Below, one piece after another: positions 994-8,229 of a stretch of 56,528 nucleotides of DNA. Every line of letters begins with the position of its first letter. The stretch's first letter is position 1. The notes beneath the pieces were generated by a model that saw only the letters and a list, made by a program, of their open reading frames with translations, made no database searches and was not told the DNA's origin. The position numbers were made by a program, and so were the translations under genes. Origin of the DNA: a virus (taxonomy: Duplodnaviria > Caudoviricetes); the IMG/VR virus record IMGVR_UViG_3300046011_010468, positions 1 to 56,528 of that record. One strand, 5' to 3'.

Positions 994-3186
994 TTAGATC
1001 GCGGGCTGGGGTGGTTCGGTGGGGGCTGGAGTGGCTCCGGGGGTGGCACCGGGGCCGGTGGGTGGGATGAGGGCCATGAGAGGCGCGATGACCTGGTCGG
1101 CGTTTTTGATGCCGTTGGCCTTGAGGATCTGGCGGAAGAGCGGGGCGAGGCGGGCCTGCACCTCGACGTTCGGCTGGGCGTAGTAGTTGGTGGCGGCGTT
1201 GGCGGCCTGGCTGTTCTGTTGGAGTTCCTGCTCCCCTCGGTATTTGGTGAGCTGGAGGTCCACGTCGAGGGTGAGGTTCTTCACCTCGTTGGGCTTGATG
1301 GTGGAGAGGGAGCCGAGGTTGCCATCGAAGAAGCGGAAGGTTTTGGTGCTCTGCAAATTGGCGGCGGCGAGGAGCATGAGCGACTTCAAAATGTCGCGGA
1401 TGCCGGCGCGGAGGTCGGATACCATTTTGTCGGTGAGTTCCTGGCCAGACTTCTCCATGTTGCGGACGCCGGTGGCGAGCTTGGTGGTGTCGAGGCCGAG
1501 GGCTTGGCCGTCGTTGACGTTGCTGACACCACTCATGTTCATGGCGATTTGCATGAGGAACTCGATCATCTCACGGAGCGGCTGGCCTTTGGTGTCGTAA
1601 ATGTCCACCTGCTGCACGGTTTCGGCGAGGGTTTTGCCGGGCTTGAGGTGGAGCGTTTCGCCGCCGTTGAGTTCGAGGTCGGGGTCGGCTTCGCCCTCGG
1701 TGGTGTTCTCTGGCTGCCAGGCGATGATTTTGCCGCTGCGGGACATGGAGAACTGCCAGCGGTTGAAGAGGAGGTCGATGGCGGTCTGGAGCGGCTCGAA
1801 CAGCTCGGCGAGGCCTTGGCCGTGGGCGCGGCCGGGGATTTTGTTGATGGTGGGCAGGCGGTAGGGGCGGCGTTTGTCGGGCGTGATGTTCTCGATGTAG
1901 TCGTAGAACAGCGGCACGGTGCCGTCACGTGTCATGATGAGCAGGATGTTGCCCTGGTTGCCGGTGTTGAGGGCGTCATACCAGAGGCAGAAGCGGGACC
2001 AGTTCACCTGCGGCTCACGTTTGTCGGTGCCGAGGCTGTCGAGCGGTTCATTGAGGTCGGCTCGGCCTTTGTTCGTGGCGGCTTGTGCCTCGGGGGTGGC
2101 GACGGTGAGGAGACGGTGGGTGAGGTTGCTGACATACTCCATGACCTGGTCCGGGGCCACGTCGTCGAGGGTGAGCAGGCGGTGGACGAGGGTGATGAGC
2201 GGCTCGTCGTAGTGGTGGACGGTTGTGTCTGCGAGTTCGAGGTTTTTGCAGTTGAGCGGGTAGAGGAAATCCGAGGGCAGCAGGATTTCGGCCTGGGGTC
2301 CTTCTTCGACGATGGTCCTGCGCCAGATGATCTGCTGCTGGTAGTTCTCTGTCCCTGGGTGCGGAGTGGTGCCGTCGCGCTTGAGCACGAGCTGGCCGGT
2401 GGGCTGCATGATTGGCTGACCGGTGGCGGGGTCTGCGGCGGGCTGCTGGGTGGCTGGATCAATGACGGGGGCCTGCTGCTCGATGAATTCGTCCTCGCCC
2501 TGGATGATGTAGTCGCCATCGGTGCCGACGACGGGCTGGCCGTCCGGTCCGAGGAGGATGGCTTTTTCGGACTGGTAGTAGGAGACGCGTTTTTGATGGA
2601 ACAACGACACGGGGCATTCGCCGCAGATGACGACACGCTCAATGATGCTGGCGAGGCTGCCTTTGGTGTCGTTTTCGGAGTCGAGGACGTGGCGGAGCCA
2701 TTTATCGAGGCGGTCGGCGAGGTCGGCGTCCTCAATTCCCACGTCGTAGGCGGCGAAGTAGGGGTCTGAGCCGAGGTAGTAGTTGATCATGCGGGCGATG
2801 ACCTGCTGGAGGATGCGCCGCGTGAGGGGGATGTGGAGATTGGAGTCCGCGAAGATGCCGCCGAGCACGGCGGAGCGATATTCGAAGCGCATCTGGTAGG
2901 ACATGAGGGCCATGTGGCGGGTGTCGAGGTGCCGCCGGCGGAAGGTGCCGTCTGCGTCGAAGGCGGAGGCGTGCCAGTTCGGTGAGTCGAAGTCGCGGAG
3001 GCCGAGTTCGTCGGCGAGTTCATCGGCGCGGTTCTTCGCGTGGATGAGGAGCGCGTCCTCCTGCGCCCGGTTCATGGACTTCGACAAGGGCGAGGGGATG
3101 AGCACGCGGGGCTTGTCTGGGTCTGGCTCCAGGAGCGGGGGTAGCTTGGAGGCGAGGGCCTGGGCCTGTGGCAGAGCGGAATCCAT
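994..3186 (-). CDS. Portal protein (P22/podovirus-type)
   Basis: About 730 aa with portal-like segments RRPY...IPGRAHGQGLAELFEPLQTAIDLLFN and MSGVSNVNDGQ...KLATGV, and a Q/P-rich tail. Start placed at MDSALP (3186) or MPRM (3195); the track's 3387 start translates a tandem repeat. Confidence 0.75.
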   Translation of the reverse strand: MDSALPQAQALASKLPPLLEPDPDKPRVLIPSPLSKSMNRAQEDALLIHAKNRADELADELGLRDFDSPNWHASAFDADGTFRRRHLDTRHMALMSYQMRFEYRSAVLGGIFADSNLHIPLTRRILQQVIARMINYYLGSDPYFAAYDVGIEDADLADRLDKWLRHVLDSENDTKGSLASIIERVVICGECPVSLFHQKRVSYYQSEKAILLGPDGQPVVGTDGDYIIQGEDEFIEQQAPVIDPATQQPAADPATGQPIMQPTGQLVLKRDGTTPHPGTENYQQQIIWRRTIVEEGPQAEILLPSDFLYPLNCKNLELADTTVHHYDEPLITLVHRLLTLDDVAPDQVMEYVSNLTHRLLTVATPEAQAATNKGRADLNEPLDSLGTDKREPQVNWSRFCLWYDALNTGNQGNILLIMTRDGTVPLFYDYIENITPDKRRPYRLPTINKIPGRAHGQGLAELFEPLQTAIDLLFNRWQFSMSRSGKIIAWQPENTTEGEADPDLELNGGETLHLKPGKTLAETVQQVDIYDTKGQPLREMIEFLMQIAMNMSGVSNVNDGQALGLDTTKLATGVRNMEKSGQELTDKMVSDLRAGIRDILKSLMLLAAANLQSTKTFRFFDGNLGSLSTIKPNEVKNLTLDVDLQLTKYRGEQELQQNSQAANAATNYYAQPNVEVQARLAPLFRQILKANGIKNADQVIAPLMALIPPTGPGATPGATPAPTEPPQPAI

Positions 3187-3217
3187 GCGGGGCATGGTGG
3201 GTGGCAGAATGGCGGAA

Positions 3218-3241
3218 TGGCAAGAGGGTTTTGTTGCGTCA
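3218..3241 (-). promoter_or_regulatory. Conserved box TGACGCAACAAAACCC plus -35-like TTGCCA upstream of portal
   Basis: 15/16 identical to boxes at 8231 and 31224; same 2-nt spacing to a TTG hexamer as at 8231. Confidence 0.65.
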
Positions 3242-3293
3242 GTGGGAGAAATGCGGTATGGTGTGGGACCATGAAACGCCCCCTTCGTGAGTT

Positions 3294-3361
3294 TGACCGG
3301 ATGCCTGACCGGATGCCTGACCGGATGCCTGACCGGATGCCTGACCGGATGCCTGACCGGA
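3294..3361. repeat. Perfect 12-bp tandem repeat (TGACCGGATGCC) x about 5.6
   Basis: Directly visible; no spacers; intergenic. Confidence 0.95.
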
Positions 3362-3373
3362 GGTGTGGGGATT

Positions 3374-3516
3374 TGTGGAACATCCAAAGATCACGCGACC
3401 TCTGGGGCGCGTGGCCAGTGACAACTTTCAAGCACCTCAAAATATGATCAAAGAAAATCAACTTCCTGAGTCCGACAGCCGAGCCCCAGATGGTCGCATT
3501 TATCCGCTTGTTCTGG
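3374..3516 (+). mobile_element. attC-like site 0
   Basis: AAC 3379-81; GAT-CAC-GCGACCTCTGGGGC (3389-3408) pairs with GCCCCAGA-t-GGTCGC-attt-ATC (3483-3504); GTT at 3510-12. The long loop contains ATG 3444. Confidence 0.6.
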
Positions 3517-3923
3517 AATCGAAGCCACCAAGCGTTGAAGAACCCTGTGAAGATGGGTTGGATGAGACGGCTTATTCTCGGTTGCGCCGAACGCTATGCA
3601 ACGTCCTTCTTGCTCTAGGAAATGGTGCTGCGTGTTCGCAAGATGCGTCTATCGAGTTCATGGAGATGATCCCCGCCGAAGTGGAAGCGGTGCGCAAAAA
3701 GTGGGAACGGAACCATAGCCGGGAGTTGGCGCATGCCCGCAAAGCGGAAGCCGCCCTCGCTGATGCCGCGCAACTGCTGGCGGAAATCATGCGCGACGAG
3801 GTGAACCACCAGGACGAGGCCGAGAAGTGGCTGAGAGCTTACGCTCCGCAGCATCTTTTTCCCGAGAACGACAAGGCTGAGGCACTGAGCCTTAGCGAAG
3901 CTGATCCTCTAGCCGCTGGTTAG
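3444..3923 (+). CDS. Hypothetical protein (cassette 1)
   Basis: 159 aa from MIKENQ. Starts inside attC-like site 0, reads through attC-like site 1 and stops at the TAG in G|TTAG. Confidence 0.7.
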   Translation: MIKENQLPESDSRAPDGRIYPLVLESKPPSVEEPCEDGLDETAYSRLRRTLCNVLLALGNGAACSQDASIEFMEMIPAEVEAVRKKWERNHSRELAHARKAEAALADAAQLLAEIMRDEVNHQDEAEKWLRAYAPQHLFPENDKAEALSLSEADPLAAG

Positions 3924-3925
3924 CT
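3862..3925 (+). mobile_element. attC-like site 1
   Basis: AAC 3867-69, 5-nt spacer, GGCTGAGG pairs with CCTC-t-AGCC (3906-14), 4-nt spacer, GTTAGCT 3919-25. Confidence 0.7.
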
Positions 3926-3995
3926 GGCTGGTTTTGAGCTTTAAAAACGCGACAGCGCAAAGGTGATGAAAATAAATCAAATCTCCATTTGCTAT

Positions 3996-4009
3996 CCCAA
4001 GCGCTTGGG
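3996..4009. promoter_or_regulatory. Palindromic operator CCCAAGCGCTTGGG in the cassette 2 promoter
   Basis: Perfect 14-bp palindrome between TTGCTA (3989-94) and an AT-rich -10-like stretch. Confidence 0.6.
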
Positions 4010-4052
4010 TTATTTATACAGGGTCAGACCAAACCGCAACTCACCCAAATAT

Positions 4053-4250
4053 ATGAAAACACCACGCTACAAAGTCGAATACAACGTCTCTACCGGAGAC
4101 ATCCACGAAGTCGCTCAATTCACGAACAAGGCTAAAGCCATCGCTGAGGCCAAGTGGAGGTTCAAAACCGAAAATAACGACGCTGGCACCGAATGGCGCG
4201 TCTATGACGAAGAGGCTGGCAAACTCATCTACCGCAGCGAAAAAGCATGA
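4053..4250 (+). CDS. Small hypothetical protein (cassette 2)
   Basis: 65 aa from MKTPRYKVEY; its stop overlaps the next ATG. Confidence 0.7.
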   Translation: MKTPRYKVEYNVSTGDIHEVAQFTNKAKAIAEAKWRFKTENNDAGTEWRVYDEEAGKLIYRSEKA

Positions 4251-4396
4251 ACAATGCCGCCCAACAACTCGGACGCCTCGGAGGCCGCAAAACCTCCGAG
4301 GCAAAAGCCGCCGCAGCAAAAGCAAACGGTGCAAAGGGTGGACGGCCTCGGAAGACACCGAATGCCGAGACGCCTTCTGAGCCAGCTAACGACTAA
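4247..4396 (+). CDS. Small basic GG/KGGRP-motif putative DNA-binding protein (cassette 2)
   Basis: Not in the ORF track. MNNAAQQLGRLGGRKTSEAKAAAAKANGAKGGRPRKTPNAETPSEPAND*, 49 aa; ATGA-coupled; the stop lies within attC-like site 2. Confidence 0.75.
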   Translation: MNNAAQQLGRLGGRKTSEAKAAAAKANGAKGGRPRKTPNAETPSEPAND

Positions 4397-4480
4397 GTGC
4401 TGGCACCACCATGAGCGCAAACGACTTACTTTTCACGCTGGACTCCGCCGCTCATGGTGGTTGTCCAGCCACGTCTTGGA
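4380..4480 (+). mobile_element. attC-like site 2
   Basis: AGCCAGCTAAC (4380-90) is the exact reverse complement of GTTAGCTGGCT (3919-29). GCTGGCACCACCATGAGCG (4399-4417) pairs with CGCTCATGGTGGTtgtCCAGC (4449-69). The right core is degenerate (G|GA). Confidence 0.7.
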
Positions 4481-4588
4481 CTGTGTTGAATTTGTATGCG
4501 GGCCTGGGCGGGAATCGGAAGCACTGGAACGCCAAGGTGACAGCCGTTGAACGCCAACCGGACATTGCGGCGGCCTATGCTGCGCGTT
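4411..4588 (+). pseudogene. N-terminal fragment of a C5-cytosine DNA methyltransferase, truncated by cassette 3
   Basis: VLNLYAGLGGNRKHW...VTAVE..PDIAAAY matches SAM-binding motifs I-II; similarity ends at the GTT at 4586. Confidence 0.7.
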
Positions 4589-4723
4589 CTGCTCCTTGCG
4601 GAGTCTTGCGGCCTTTCGAGCTTCTTGCAGCGCGGCTTGTTGCTCTGGCGTGATCTTGCGGCGGCTTGCTTTGCCGCCTTTGCTGCCGATCTCAGCGAGG
4701 TATTTCTTGAGGTCTTTTTTCAT
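4433..4723 (-). CDS. Small basic KGG-motif putative DNA-binding protein (cassette 3)
   Basis: KYLAEIGSKGGKASRR. The C-terminal half past 4586 is probably read-through across the cassette junction. Confidence 0.65.
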   Translation of the reverse strand: MKKDLKKYLAEIGSKGGKASRRKITPEQQAALQEARKAARLRKEQNAQHRPPQCPVGVQRLSPWRSSASDSRPGPHTNSTQSKTWLDNHHERRSPA

Positions 4724-4911
4724 GCCTTCGAGAGATCGACGCCAGTTTTCCAGTTAGCCACGAATATGCGCAGCAGGATAGCCATCGGGAAGGATGCGCC
4801 TCGCTTTTCGAGGTATGCCATGAGCGACGGAACGCAGTCAGAAGGCACGCGGACTACTGATTCGAGCACTCCATTGACGGAGATTTCCGCCACCGATTCA
4901 GAGGCTTGCAT
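4720..4911 (-). CDS. Small hypothetical protein (cassette 3)
   Basis: 63 aa, overlapping neighbours on the same strand. Confidence 0.5.
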   Translation of the reverse strand: MQASESVAEISVNGVLESVVRVPSDCVPSLMAYLEKRGASFPMAILLRIFVANWKTGVDLSKA

Positions 4912-5104
4912 TGTAGTCTGCCTCCTGGATGAGATTGTTGATGCGTGATGCCTCCGACCAGTCAGTTGACCGAGGGCAGGCGCGAAGGATGCGGGCGGCC
5001 TGAGTGTATAGGCGGCGGGCCTGCTCAGGGGTTGAGTCGCACCGATCAGCGGTGGACATAAGGGCTTTGGCGTCGGCGATGTATTCAGCGTTCATGTGTG
5101 TCAT
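4898..5104 (-). CDS. Small hypothetical protein (cassette 3)
   Basis: 68 aa, first gene after the palindromic promoter region. Confidence 0.6.
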   Translation of the reverse strand: MTHMNAEYIADAKALMSTADRCDSTPEQARRLYTQAARILRACPRSTDWSEASRINNLIQEADYNASL

Positions 5105-5108
5105 GTTA

Positions 5109-5125
5109 TCATAAGCCGCTTATGA
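5109..5125. promoter_or_regulatory. Palindromic operator TCATAAGC-c-GCTTATGA in the cassette 3 promoter
   Basis: 8-bp inverted repeat directly upstream of the 5104 start; shares an AAGC/GCTT core with the 3996 palindrome. Confidence 0.6.
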
Positions 5126-5156
5126 CGCAAGCGGTATTTTGAAGGTTCTCACCAAC

Positions 5157-5218
5157 GGAGCAGAACAATGAGATGCAGTCCAACGGGGCTAAGGCCCCGT
5201 GGCTGATCTCAAGCGACT
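5157..5218 (+). mobile_element. attC-like site 3
   Basis: GGAGCAGAAC (5157-66) is the exact reverse complement of GTTCTGCTCC (4586-95). Stem GAGAT-g-CAG-t-CC-a-ACGGGGC / GCCCCGT-GG-CTG-ATCTC has single-base bulges. The right end is G|ACT. Confidence 0.72.
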
Positions 5219-5459
5219 CACATCCTGGATGCCGGTGGTGGAGTTGCCGAGGATTCCTCGGCAGGTGGATGCGGCACTGCTGCGCGACTCACATCCTGGA
5301 TGCCGGGGTAATGTGCGTGACGTGCAGAGCCTGCTGGGGCATGCGAGATTGGAGACGACGATGATTTACGTGTATGGGGACGGAGAGCGGGTGAGGAGTC
5401 CGCTGGACACGCTGGCGGACTTGCCTGTGAATGTGGTGCCGTTTCAGCAGGCGGCTTGA
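5213..5459 (+). pseudogene. C-terminal relic of an integron-integrase-like tyrosine recombinase
   Basis: MRHCCATHILDAG in one frame, then NVRDVQSLLGHARLETTMIYV...VRSPLD after a frameshift near 5306; 23-bp duplication at 5213-35 / 5284-5306. Confidence 0.8.
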
Positions 5460-5501
5460 GAGGTGGACAACAGGGCGGAGTGATGCCTATGAGCAGGGAT
5501 T

Positions 5502-6272
5502 GTGGCGAAGAAAACGAGCCAGAAGCCCCCAGCCAACCCCCGCACCGAGCCTGTGCCTATGAGCACAGTGGCGGTGCCGTCGTCTCTCGGTAAGGGGGAA
5601 GTGAGGCTTTACGATTTGAGAAAAAGCAGCCTGCCGGAGGTGGCTGTGCCGCCTCCCGAGGCGGAACTGGCAGACTGGGCGTTTTGGCTGGTTCATTTCC
5701 CGTCCCGCCGTTGTGCGCCGGTGAAGGGAGATCGCGGCGAAGCGCTGGCGGTGATGAAAAAGCTGGGGCGCGGGCAGGATGTGGCGGGTGTTTTGCCTGT
5801 GAAACCCGCCAAAGAGTCGCGTGCGCGGGCGTGTGTGTGTGTGCAGGATGGGGAGCAGCAGGAGCCAAAGCCGCCGGCGAACCGGATGGCTTACACGCCG
5901 GTGCCGGAGGGTGCGGACTTTGACCAGGCGATGGCGCATGTGTTTCCGGTGGCGAGGCTGACGCAGCATTTTGAGCGCCTCCTCATGGCGGAGGAGGAGA
6001 TTTACGACAAGGAGGGGAACTGCACCGGCTCCAAGCCGGCGTTCACGACGCAATTCCAGACGCTCAAGGCGCTGACTGAATGGCACCAAGGGAGGCCACG
6101 GGAGAGGGAAAAGAAAAAGGAGGCGAGGCCGGTGCTGGGCATCCAGGAGCTGCGGCAGAAGCTGCTCATCTCCCCGGAATACCGGCAGGCCATGCTGGAG
6201 ATGATCCGCGACTGCGAGGCACAGGCGGCGGCGATGGCAGGCGGCGGCACCAAACCCCCGGTGGGAGGCTGA
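5502..6272 (+). CDS. Putative terminase small subunit
   Basis: 256 aa directly upstream of the large subunit; positional call only. Confidence 0.45.
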   Translation: MAKKTSQKPPANPRTEPVPMSTVAVPSSLGKGEVRLYDLRKSSLPEVAVPPPEAELADWAFWLVHFPSRRCAPVKGDRGEALAVMKKLGRGQDVAGVLPVKPAKESRARACVCVQDGEQQEPKPPANRMAYTPVPEGADFDQAMAHVFPVARLTQHFERLLMAEEEIYDKEGNCTGSKPAFTTQFQTLKALTEWHQGRPREREKKKEARPVLGIQELRQKLLISPEYRQAMLEMIRDCEAQAAAMAGGGTKPPVGG

Positions 6273-6276
6273 ACCC

Positions 6277-8229
6277 ATGGCCTACTACGCACACGACAAC
6301 CTGACCAGCACGGGCACGATGAAGGCCGTGCATGCGGTGGAGATGCAGGGCATGCGGGAGGAGACGCATGAGGACATTGACCAGCTCGTGGTGCGGTCCC
6401 GGCCTGGGGCGTGGTTTGAAACGGAGGGGCACATCATCGACAAGGCCGCTGTGGAGCGTGGAGCGCGGAGCGAGGACGGTGTGGCGCTGCATGCGAACTG
6501 GCTGCAAAAGCGGCTGTTTGAGATCGCCCAGTGGTGCCTGGACAACAATGAGCCGTGCAGGCTCCTGGTTTACAAACCTCGGCAGAAAGGGTGCAGCACG
6601 GGCACGATGGCGCTGGCTTACTGGTGGAGTCGGCGTCAGCGGTCGAACTGCTTGCTCATGGGTGGGCAGTATTCGCAGGTGGAAAACCTGTGGGGCATTT
6701 TCAGCCATTACGCGAGCAAGGACCGCTTCGAGTGGGGGAACTCCATCGAGAAGCTGAACACGGATTCAGCGACTTTTTCCAACGGCAGCGAGTGGCAGTG
6801 GGAGACGGCGCGAGATCCCGAGGCGGGGCGCTCTGGGACGTATCAGGTGGCGGTGCTTACGGAAGTGGCACGCTGGGCCGAGCAGGGCGTGGCAAATGCT
6901 TCCAAGGTGCTCAACGGGGTGCAGAACTGTGTGCCAAAGATCCCGGGAACGCTGGTGATCATGGAGACGACCGTCAAAGGCGGCTTCGGCGAGTTTTACC
7001 ACAAGTGGGTGGGCGACAAGGATAAGAATGTGCCGGGTGCGGTGAGCTTCGAGGACTTCAAGCGGGGTAAGCGCGGGAACGGATGGATCAAGGTTTTTGC
7101 TCCGTGGTTCGTGTTTGAGGACAGCCGGATTGCATGCCGCGATGAGCAGGAGGCTGCGGACATCATGGCAGGCATCGGCGCGATCTCCGAAGAAGAGAAG
7201 AGCGCGGAGCAGGAGATGATCCGGCGGTTCCGTCTGGGGCCGGAGCAGATCAAATACTGGCGCGATGTGCTGATCAATGAGTGCCAGCGCGATCCTGACA
7301 ACCGGGACCGGGAGTATCCGCCGACGCCGGAGGCTGGGTTTAAGAGCACGCTGCCGGGTCGATTTAACCGGATTGGGCTGCGGAAGCTGCGCGAGGGTGC
7401 GGAGCAGCAGCGGGACGCCATGCGGCGCATCATCCTGGAGAATCCGAGCGGCGACCGGAAAAACTACGTCCCACGCATCGTGCGCGAGGACAGCGAGGCG
7501 AGCTACTACATCTGGGAGCCGCCGAAGGTGGGGTATCGCTACCTACTGGCAGCCGACTTGGCGGCCGGTGAGGAAGTCACCGAGGGCGGGGACCGGGACT
7601 GCCAGACCGTGCTGGTGATCCGGCAGGGATTCATGAGTGCGCAGCGCGGCTGCTGGATGCCGCCCAAGGTGGTGGCGACAATCAAGCCGAACTGCCGCGT
7701 GGACCAACTCGTGCTGGCGGACATGGCGTGGCGTCTTGCCCGCTACTATGGCGGCTGCTTGATCGTGCCAGAGGTGAACTATGACAAAGGATTCATCCGG
7801 GCGCTGCGGGATCGCGGAGCGCACCTTTACGAGCGCGAGAGGGCGGCGACGGACAAGGAAGACCAGAAGCCCACCAAGAAGTTTGGATTCCTCACACGCG
7901 GCACCGATGGCGAAGGCATGCGGGGCTGGTGCATTGAGCGGCTGGCGGCGGCGATTCGCGAGTGGGACGTGCAGGGCAGCGGCATCGACTGCCCGGCGGA
8001 GTTCATTCTGGCTGAACTGGAGAACTTTATCCGCACGGAATCCGGGCGCGAGGAGGCGGCCCCTGGCAAGCATGACGACTGGGTGCTGGCGCTGTGCATC
8101 GCCCTGGCGACGATTGACGGCGCGACGCTTTACCGGGCGGAGGTCACGCGGAATGCGGAGCCGGCGTATCGGGAGAAGCAGCGGCAGCGGGAGCTGGCGG
8201 CAAAGCGGGGGCAGCGGGGGATGCGGTGA
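6277..8229 (+). CDS. terL: Terminase large subunit
   Basis: Walker A KPRQKGCST, Walker B VLTEVARW, coupling motif METT, RNase H-type nuclease residues AADLA, PEVN, GKHDDWVLA. Confidence 0.93.
   Translation: MAYYAHDNLTSTGTMKAVHAVEMQGMREETHEDIDQLVVRSRPGAWFETEGHIIDKAAVERGARSEDGVALHANWLQKRLFEIAQWCLDNNEPCRLLVYKPRQKGCSTGTMALAYWWSRRQRSNCLLMGGQYSQVENLWGIFSHYASKDRFEWGNSIEKLNTDSATFSNGSEWQWETARDPEAGRSGTYQVAVLTEVARWAEQGVANASKVLNGVQNCVPKIPGTLVIMETTVKGGFGEFYHKWVGDKDKNVPGAVSFEDFKRGKRGNGWIKVFAPWFVFEDSRIACRDEQEAADIMAGIGAISEEEKSAEQEMIRRFRLGPEQIKYWRDVLINECQRDPDNRDREYPPTPEAGFKSTLPGRFNRIGLRKLREGAEQQRDAMRRIILENPSGDRKNYVPRIVREDSEASYYIWEPPKVGYRYLLAADLAAGEEVTEGGDRDCQTVLVIRQGFMSAQRGCWMPPKVVATIKPNCRVDQLVLADMAWRLARYYGGCLIVPEVNYDKGFIRALRDRGAHLYERERAATDKEDQKPTKKFGFLTRGTDGEGMRGWCIERLAAAIREWDVQGSGIDCPAEFILAELENFIRTESGREEAAPGKHDDWVLALCIALATIDGATLYRAEVTRNAEPAYREKQRQRELAAKRGQRGMR

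Follow-up and report, generated by a model that had tools for sequence, protein, structure and literature searches.

Structured attC-like elements at gene junctions beside an integron-integrase remnant in a tailed phage from lake water

In a textbook integron cassette, a self-contained open reading frame (ORF) is followed by an attC site and is read away from the integrase. attC sites range in length from about 55 to 141 nt. Sedentary chromosomal integrons hold near-identical attC sites such as the VCRs, whose arrays carry genes on the top strand, and T4-type phages have promoter-stem-loop (PeSL) cassettes, promoter-bearing units that are believed to exchange through homologous recombination, independently of any integrase. 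The primary papers on ORF-11 and ORF-18 of attI1 and on short attC ORFs are reportedly Hanau-Bercot 2002 and Jacquier 2009. ORF-11 of attI1 spans the crossover and receives its TAG from positions 3–5 of the cassette sequence GTTRRRY; short ORFs in attC aid reinitiation, a coupling that helps cassettes without an initiation region of their own, and fused cassettes are also described (PMC8876359). attC overlaps the stop codon in most resistance cassettes (PMC11511950). In attC it is the bottom strand that folds and recombines; the exchange takes place between A and C of its RYYYAAC, and attC sites engineered into coding sequence remain functional (Nivina et al. 2020, PMC7439510). Integrons and integrase-less attC clusters (CALINs) have been found in 21 phages, with methyltransferase genes among the cassettes (PMC9892861). 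Here we analysed IMG/VR record IMGVR_UViG_3300046011_010468, a tailed phage from lake water; the window is the whole viral record of 56,528 bases (completeness estimate, 92%), and our subject is a set of attC-like elements, called sites below, that lie between gene modules at 3300–5456.

The segment 3300–5456 is probably the decayed remnant of a tailed-phage integron, its gene modules split by attC-like sites. Backbone homology to related phages stops at 3299/3300 and restarts at 5456/5457, which defines the segment as an island; it sits between the divergent portal and terminase-side genes, and its G+C content is 0.48–0.59 versus 0.61–0.70 in the flanks. A terminase search yielded 19 related viral loci. 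The portal gene and the homologue of the gene at 5502 abut in seven more distant relatives (L006, L007, L012, L013, L015, L016 and L021; 36–115 nt between tblastn ends), and in closer relatives the same gap holds islands of 1–2 kb with differing contents. In this material we observed a family of covarying structures, breakpoints associated with them, fixed reading frames across them and a link with relatives of intI. The copy in the window is degraded: the integrase is a stub, the methyltransferase breaks off near residue 57, one block lies in inverted orientation and the ORF at 3444 is a three-part chimera.

The repeat between the gene modules begins with 5′-(S)GAACG and closes with TTGTTC-3′; between these ends, and set off from each by a short spacer, is an imperfect hairpin that has bulged bases and a variable loop. 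Five copies of the site 2 type (see below) gave a consensus of 21 pairs with three bulged bases in the 3′ arm; six of the pairs were compensatory, and one of 105 cells was broken. The covariance model built from these five copies, R1, gave 15 matches across 574 kb of loci and, with its filters off, 29 matches in 13 island loci; five of the 29 rows were reverse-strand echoes of palindromic stems, leaving 24 distinct elements. The aligned rows have kept their ends (GAACG on the 5′ side; GTTG, the outer stem and GCC-TTGTTC on the 3′ side), their stems are wholly different yet complementary, and their loops vary. In the fitted alignment, 95.6% of the cells pair and all 21 pairs show double changes; the double-change cells number 163, versus 45 ± 5.6 in shuffles (0/500), and slid controls pair at 31–52%. 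G-U cells are few (7/527), which fits a structure at the DNA level. The elements are 55–125 nt long, with spacers of 6 and 5 nt and loops of 4 to about 100 nt. With two exceptions, the 24 distinct elements share the strand of the genes of their locus, nearly all members have AAC and GTT, and the flanks in L022 and L027 are perfectly complementary 7-mers. Compared with attC, the family shows an imperfect hairpin with extrahelical bases, an unpaired spacer and a variable loop (site 0 being the exception), a length within the attC range, and same-orientation arrays between genes. In the window, R1 matched site 2, a minus-strand element at 5162–5220 and, weakly, site 1. An Rfam search of 3200–5600 at E values up to 1 gave no match. 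We conclude that the elements are a real structured, recombination-associated family beside an integron-integrase remnant.

Site 2 (4385–4482, plus strand) scored 115.6 bits with R1. Its AAC is at 4388–4390, and the stop codon of the upstream gene, TAA at 4394–4396, lies just 5′ of the stem, in which 4397–4417 pairs with 4449–4472 (three bulged bases in the 3′ arm) around a loop at 4418–4448. Inside the stem is a perfect 13-nt inverted repeat (4405–4417 and 4449–4461), whose 5′ arm contains the ATG at 4411; the entire window has just eight close inverted repeats, this one included. The segment 4375–4485 folds at −24.0 kcal/mol, compared with −14.0 ± 2.5 for shuffles (z −3.92; 0/200 shuffles equal), and its opposite strand has a z of −3.96. 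The end motifs are AGCTAAC at 4384–4390 and GTT at 4485–4487; the position homologous to the GTT of other members is a mutated GGA at 4478–4480.

The ATG at 4411 opens an 80-aa ORF (4411–4653, plus strand), which comprises a 24-codon leader and the N-terminal part of a C5 DNA methyltransferase, as seen from homology to protein P0002 (240 aa, PF00145, 93% identical across the fragment) and to locus L042. The L042 homology covers 4402–4580, and because it ends at 4580 the gene is truncated; a Pfam scan of 4411–4653 gave no match, PF00145 included. The same hairpin precedes an N6/N4 methyltransferase in L022, a 230-aa methyltransferase-like ORF in L026 and L027, an intact 231-aa C5 methyltransferase in L042 and a 209-aa ORF in L146, and its ATG is in frame with the downstream ORF every time. 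The leader also occurs in proteins P0001, P0002 and P0018, the last of which joins it to an unrelated 158-aa protein, the fifth different gene to be led in frame. Among 14 fetched methyltransferase relatives, five start with M-K-(I/V/T-I)-L-N-L-Y-A-G and have no leader, three have this leader and six have other extensions; 78 of 80 viral methyltransferase loci match P0002 only from residue 12–41 on. The original prediction, made from the window sequence alone, had placed ATG 4411 in the stem of site 2, read the elements as portable starts and N-terminal leaders, and expected conservation to begin only past the crossover. The ATG does lie in the stem, the hairpin and its leader stand before different genes and always in frame, and the leaderless methyltransferases begin right at the end of the element, as predicted. 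A search of viral contigs with just the 3′ half of the hairpin found the L022 contig only. The exact hairpin pattern was found at seven loci in metagenome contigs, of which L026 and L027 are true relatives; L023, L024, L025, L028 and L029 were discarded as long near-perfect palindromes (50–70 nt or more) with unrelated flanks, possibly assembly snap-back artefacts.

The island's homology breaks at 3515/3516, 3870/3871, 3916–3919 (at GTT) and 4391. Assembled Logan contigs of two runs break at 3516 and 3870; none of the sequencing runs listed for the window is an RNA run. Among 118 clustered homology ends from 13 loci, which were counted in both partners and are not independent, AACG lies within 4 nt of 22, compared with 8.3 ± 2.8 at random (reached in 1/2000 shuffles). 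CGTT is not enriched at these ends (2 vs 3.3), GTT alone is not significantly so (15/118 vs 11.4), and TTGTT is slightly raised (5 vs 1.8). Two shared units, each of one element and one gene, run exactly from AAC to AAC (L026:92–760 = L027:560–1228; L037:2237–2606 = L038:2240–2609). These borders fit the attC crossover between A and C, with which the junctions at 3870 and 4391 also agree; some borders fall at the GTT end or elsewhere. Crossovers had been predicted at GTT: breaks do lie near the proposed positions (3515/3516 is 5 nt past 3510), and most are at the AAC end instead. From the AAC breakpoints and the published crossover position, we infer that the gene strand is the bottom-like strand. 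It would follow that a cassette consists of an element and the gene downstream of it, and that ordinary exchange would swap C-terminal tails and stops, not N-terminal leaders. A bottom-like gene strand also fits the position of the arrays relative to intI, described below, and the bulged bases on the 3′ arm, if the extrahelical bases of attC lie on the 3′ half of the bottom strand.

Reading frames across the elements are also nonrandom. Thirty-three elements have AAC and are preceded by a frame of 40 codons or more (three without AAC and four without such a frame were left out). The longest of the upstream frames reads AAC as a codon in 27/33, some elements being copies of others (p = 1.4e-8 vs 1/3). 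This frame stops inside the element in 33/36 cases, compared with 30% of random windows, and a stop and an outgoing ATG share the element in 21/40, compared with 16.5%; nine elements have the stop as AAC-NNN-stop. In the elements of relatives the ATG is in the stem or the loop, and in a hand-checked subset the frame offset from AAC to ATG is equal in the two types. L042 is the closest relative, and there the stop of the preceding ORF overlaps the hairpin ATG as ATGA. ATG 4411 is thus supported by its in-frame position in five contexts, the L042 overlap and the constant offset; on such sequence evidence, the ATGs of the hairpins and leaders likely serve as starts.

The island ends in a broken 3′ remnant of an integron-integrase gene (5199–5459, plus strand), with the motifs ...LLGHARLETTMIYVY. 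Against the NCBIfam integron-integrase model TIGR02249, the remnant scored 21–23 bits over positions 278–315 only (the last 38), far below the curated cut-off of 265 bits, which is set for the whole protein. All seven full-length relatives (334–353 aa, 70–86% identical over the remnant, PF13495 plus PF00589) pass with 268.7–275.5 bits; XerC/XerD models gave them about 107–126 bits, far under those models' own cut-offs. Judged by these scores, 5199–5459 is the remnant of a TIGR02249 member and not itself a member. As a query in viral contigs the remnant gave two weak matches only. Relatives of a full-length integrase, P0073, were found at 70 IMG/VR viral loci (L124–L193), many of them on contigs of 30–78 kb, and L172 and L173 have 3′ integrase stubs like that of the window. 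In these 70 loci R1 gave 19 matches at 11 loci (about nine distinct, L167/L169 and L126/L131 being probable duplicates). All 19 lie upstream of intI and on its strand, with none downstream or on the opposite strand. The window has the same order, plus-strand elements followed by the plus-strand integrase remnant, an arrangement that would be the canonical geometry for a bottom strand. Within the remnant, a 23-nt direct repeat (5213–5235 and 5284–5306, 71 nt apart) codes the ATHILDAG motif twice; a Logan contig, X5, has an additional G after 5304, and L003 retains just 68 nt of the remnant, with a small duplication of its own.

The left half of the island holds the chimera. An open frame at 3363–3923 has its earliest ATG at 3444–3446 and its stop, TAG, at 3921–3923; the resulting 159-aa ORF (3444–3923, plus strand) is composed of a leader (3444–3515), a body (3516–3870) and a tail with the stop (3871–3923), and a 159-aa protein 99% identical to its product, P0024, is present in the protein collection. 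The leader belongs to site 0 (3420–3515, plus strand), a leader-type linker with AAC at 3423–3425, the ATG at 3444 and CTTGTTCTG at 3507–3515. Site 0 has the ends of the family and a conserved leader: 52 of the 72 nt of 3444–3515 are identical, in frame, to the start of L003:2202, a different 120-aa ORF, and 3439–3490 is 75% identical to L027:171–222 (52 nt). It has no hairpin. As a single strand, 3405–3520 gave z values of +1.44 and +1.77, with 190 and 196 of 200 shuffles folding as well, and R1 did not detect it in a 5.1-kb search.

The body (3516–3870, plus strand, 355 nt, ending ...GAGAAC) codes for the C-terminal portion of a 225-aa L014-group protein; it is 96.9% identical in six loci of that group, with sharp ends, and its protein shares 114/127 residues with L014:5426–6103. 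The N-terminal part of the L014 protein looks, by eye, like a helix-turn-helix domain, and a Pfam search of the 225 residues gave no match. The tail, 3871–3923, occurs in the window alone. Among 48 relatives of the ORF 3444 product in the protein collection, wide sharing is limited to a C-terminal motif of about 35 aa; the N-terminal parts are unrelated, and the tails differ beyond ...PEN. This motif (...AEIMRDEVNHQDEAEKWLRAYAPQHLFPEN; 3760–3870 in the window, and P0025–P0071) is 75–96% identical across dozens of small proteins and has no family match; it may be a portable interaction peptide. The idea that the conserved 3′ block is a DNA element was rejected, as it does not fold (z about 0) and its differences are mainly synonymous, as in the comparison of L037 to L039 with the window; by its codon pattern the block is a 35-aa protein motif.

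ORF 3444 also reads clean through site 1 (3864–3923, plus strand), a short 60-nt and weak member of the family with R1 12.6 bits and E 0.0098 in the 5.1-kb search and fold z values of −1.34 and −0.13 on the two strands; a comparable 55-nt element, L041:1202–1256, has a model E value of 1.3e-4. The TAG lies within the GTTAG of this site, in GGTTAG at 3918–3923. Thus, the original prediction was right about the ATG and stop of ORF 3444 and about its passage through the GTT at 3510–3512 and through site 1, and wrong in placing the start inside a loop of site 0, where nothing folds. It had taken all of these sites for attC-like hairpins; site 2 is one (z −3.9, 21 covarying pairs), site 1 is weak and site 0 is not. 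It had also named, as evidence that would count against it, a leader conserved in relatives without a hairpin, and site 0 has exactly such a leader (72% of nucleotides shared with L003). A second leader-bearing linker (AACG...ATGACTACCATGAAC...) occurs at L014:5409–5472, L041:1999–2062 and L038:2602–2681, and gives an identical opening of 15 residues, MTTMNTTNSIRAVAC, to the helix-turn-helix-like L014 protein and to a lipoprotein-like ORF of L041.

Downstream of site 1, a body of two genes (3916–4391, plus strand; ORFs 3963/4053–4250 and 4247–4396) is 97.5% identical over 476 nt to L041:1249–1724, on another viral contig. The homology begins at the GTT of GGTTAG and ends at AAC/G, both sharply. 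Since it starts at GTT, the very first bases of the module include the stop of ORF 3444; the TAG is thus supplied by the DNA of the next module, as had been predicted. The module ends are 11-nt terminal inverted repeats, GTTAGCTGGCT and AGCCAGCTAAC (3919–3929 and 4380–4390); about 0.7 chance occurrences of such a repeat are expected per 2.4 kb by our estimate, and this one is meaningful only because the two repeats are the ends of the 476-bp module shared with L041. ORF 4247 crosses the right end of the module, its tail being D-stop in the window versus 12 further residues in L041. A Logan contig from another lake metagenome matches 4340–4391 and then diverges, a third context.

These arrangements suggest how such an integron would have worked. 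Genes would lie on the strand on which the sites end in AAC, which corresponds to the bottom strand that is recombined in attC, so that a cassette reads site and then gene, and IntI would recombine the attC-like sites on this strand. The start codon of a gene would be within its own site, as with ATG 4411 in the site 2 stem of the methyltransferase remnant. A gene without a stop of its own would cross the AA/C point in frame and stop in the site of its neighbour, as ORF 4247 may do at TAA 4394–4396 and ORF 3444 at TAG 3921–3923, past the short site 1; swapping the neighbour would give a new C-terminal tail. More tentatively, and with the odds somewhat against it, a phage-integron lineage in lake viruses may have turned attC sites into protein-coding junction modules, such that each reshuffle rewrites protein termini. 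If so, gene bodies would be open-ended on the recombined strand and leaders would sometimes be fused to new bodies, so that accessory genes of phages, for example anti-restriction methyltransferases, would undergo a DNA-level counterpart of exon shuffling.

The elements could act in RNA instead, as linkers whose hairpin shuts the next start until the upstream ribosome opens it (termination-reinitiation), with exchange by homologous or short-homology recombination and no integrase. The sharing of an element by the upstream stop and the downstream ATG (21/40 vs 16.5%), the 11 elements with ATGA overlaps and the position of TAA 4394–4396 immediately 5′ of the stem holding ATG 4411 are what such linkers would show; the conserved GAACG and TTGTTC ends could act as short homologies, and there are breakpoints at both element ends. 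These ends, however, conserve 5–10 nt, which is little for homologous exchange, and the breaks fall exactly at AAC, the published attC crossover. The very low number of G-U pairs (7/527), the strict placement of all 19 matches upstream of intI relatives on the same strand and the integron-integrase remnant in the island itself also tell against RNA linkers, which we regard as unlikely; the two functions do not exclude each other, as an attC-like DNA site can double as an RNA hairpin. Far less probable still is that the elements are selfish palindromic repeats (MITE- or RPE-like) at gene junctions, translated by accident beside an unrelated integrase remnant. The same hairpin of roughly 95 nt does occur in unrelated contexts with both flanks different, and L022 and L027 have the perfectly complementary 7-mers. 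However, these flanks are inverted and there are no direct target duplications; the elements are confined to gene junctions, where they form arrays of a single orientation beside intI relatives, and their stems differ fully while the ends are kept, which is the attC pattern and not that of copies of one transposing sequence.

A further possibility concerns the window copy alone, namely that its two ORFs are rearrangement debris, a dead methyltransferase stub and an accidental in-frame chimera, with ATGs 3444 and 4411 unused. The methyltransferase is cut at 4580 (about 57 residues), before most of PF00145, and has no Pfam match; in ORF 3444, 24 codons from one type of gene run into the C-terminal part of a second, at a point inside the L014 gene, and long open frames are common in this G+C-rich DNA. 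The 159-aa chimera nevertheless recurs at 99% identity (P0024), the C-terminal 35-aa motif is intact with mostly synonymous change between relatives, and the intact L042 gene has the same leader arrangement and the ATGA overlap. We consider debris possible for these two ORFs, if on the doubtful side, and it would leave the family-level pattern untouched. As regards the decayed phage integron, several observations weigh against it or against the details of its expression. The window has neither an intact integrase nor a recognised attI, its site 0 lacks a hairpin and its site 1 is marginal. Breaks occur also at the GTT end (3916–3919, and where site-2-type elements meet different genes at their 3′ edge) and at neither end (3299/3300, 3515/3516 in the L014 gene, 4580 and 5456/7); illegitimate or homologous recombination thus had a part in shaping the island as well. 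The covariation was counted on a model-fitted alignment that includes the five echoes, and its figures therefore lean to structure; the RYYY/RRRY parts of the canonical cores are poorly kept, AAC and GTT alone being conserved. An element ATG that opens a long ORF is not discriminating (26/40 vs 58% of random windows), and ATGA overlaps are not enriched (11/33 vs 24% of all long-frame stops in these phages). GTG 4483 or TTG 4486, at the canonical methyltransferase N-terminus, may be the real start, and in L022 and L026/L027 the canonical N-termini likewise have TTG/GTG codons that may be the true starts. Synonymous and non-synonymous changes in the leader codons stand at 0:12 versus L022, 1:8 versus L026 and 7:6 versus L042; as most changes are non-synonymous, the leader peptide is hardly constrained.

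Beyond the methyltransferase fragment, 4581–5220 is an inverted block with three small overlapping minus-strand ORFs (4898–5104, 4720–4911 and 4433–4723), the last gene of which ends ...CAGAAC/G at 4585–4592. It carries the short minus-strand element at 5162–5220 (R1 E 3.5e-4, as L002:3263–3321(−)); 5162–5215 is 90.7% identical to L038:3016–2963. A 17-nt perfect palindrome, TCATAAGCCGCTTATGA, noticed by eye at 5109–5125 just upstream of the first small ORF, looks like the operator of a self-regulated small operon, possibly of the toxin-antitoxin type. Small, very basic KGG-like proteins, GGRKTSEAKAAAAKANGAKGGRPRK and GSKGGKASRRKITPEQ, are encoded at 4247–4396 (plus strand) and 4585–4723 (minus strand); 11-nt inverted repeats lie at 4305–4315 and 4657–4667 between the two genes, and 4340 and 4668 are connected, on opposite strands, in a Logan contig of high depth.

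The island is flanked by the annotated SU10-type portal gene (994–3387, minus strand) and, on the plus strand, by a backbone gene upstream of the terminase (5502–6272; the phage backbone restarts at 5457 and runs on to 6272) and the annotated terminase large subunit gene (6277–8229). Exactly at the portal-side edge is a 12-nt tandem repeat of about five copies (3294–3361), whose unit, TGACCGGATGCC, covers the sequence where backbone and island meet; at the equivalent position L027 carries a tandem repeat of about 50 nt that is unrelated to it. A terminase query against bacterial contigs, one genome per species, found zero relatives, and therefore no host or prophage in that set. The final 22 kb of the record is occupied by one open frame of 7277 codons (34650–56483, minus strand), which comes within 45 nt of the record end.

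A gene junction inside the site, together with genes on the other strand, would amount to a different design rule for cassette expression and would show natural selection using the sequence freedom of attC to encode protein. A keyword literature search, which does not prove absence, found neither a natural attC with a start codon and leader of a cassette protein nor phage integrons with bottom-strand genes. The 70 viral loci with integrase relatives suggest that phage integrons may be commoner in freshwater viromes than the 21 phages described so far (PMC9892861) would indicate, and a cargo that includes orphan methyltransferases bears on how phages swap anti-restriction genes. On the practical side, arrays of this kind will lead gene callers to misplace starts and stops, and sites overlapped by coding sequence may escape attC finders.

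Donated stops, ORF-11 of attI and CALINs in phages have all been described before. Like a VCR array, the present family is one kind of site repeated along an array; unlike in VCR arrays, the genes are not on the top strand. As with PeSL cassettes, structured repeats flank small accessory genes in a hyperplastic region of a phage genome, the difference being that PeSL cassettes carry promoters and are thought to exchange without an integrase. The phage integrons and CALINs of Qi et al. 2023 share with this locus phage-borne attC sites, integrase genes and methyltransferase cassettes, as well as mixed site orientations, several ORFs between sites and GTT-type borders; here, unlike there, a single homogeneous site family has the stop/start junction inside the site, the genes are on the AAC-end strand and the window retains an integrase stub only (PMC9892861). 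ORF 3444 resembles ORF-11 and ORF-18 of attI1 in starting in a site, running over the crossover and ending at a TAG, 3921–3923, that likewise occupies positions 3–5 of its core, GTTAGCT; whereas those ORFs make a separate reinitiation peptide, here the site ATG is in frame with the gene body, and the site would encode the N-terminal 23–24 residues (PMC8876359). The original prediction correctly noted that stops are donated and mistook this for something unusual in integrons, as overlap of attC with the stop is normal: resistance cassettes likewise have the 3′ end and stop of the ORF in or at the site, the difference being that here the ORF crosses the crossover and ends in the neighbour's site, with the AAC frame fixed (27/33) (PMC11511950). 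Finally, as in the synthetic attC sites of PMC7439510, function would come from structure (bulges, an unpaired spacer, a variable loop and AAC), so that a site can be written into coding DNA; those sites were engineered, and the elements described here would be a natural family doing so at gene ends.

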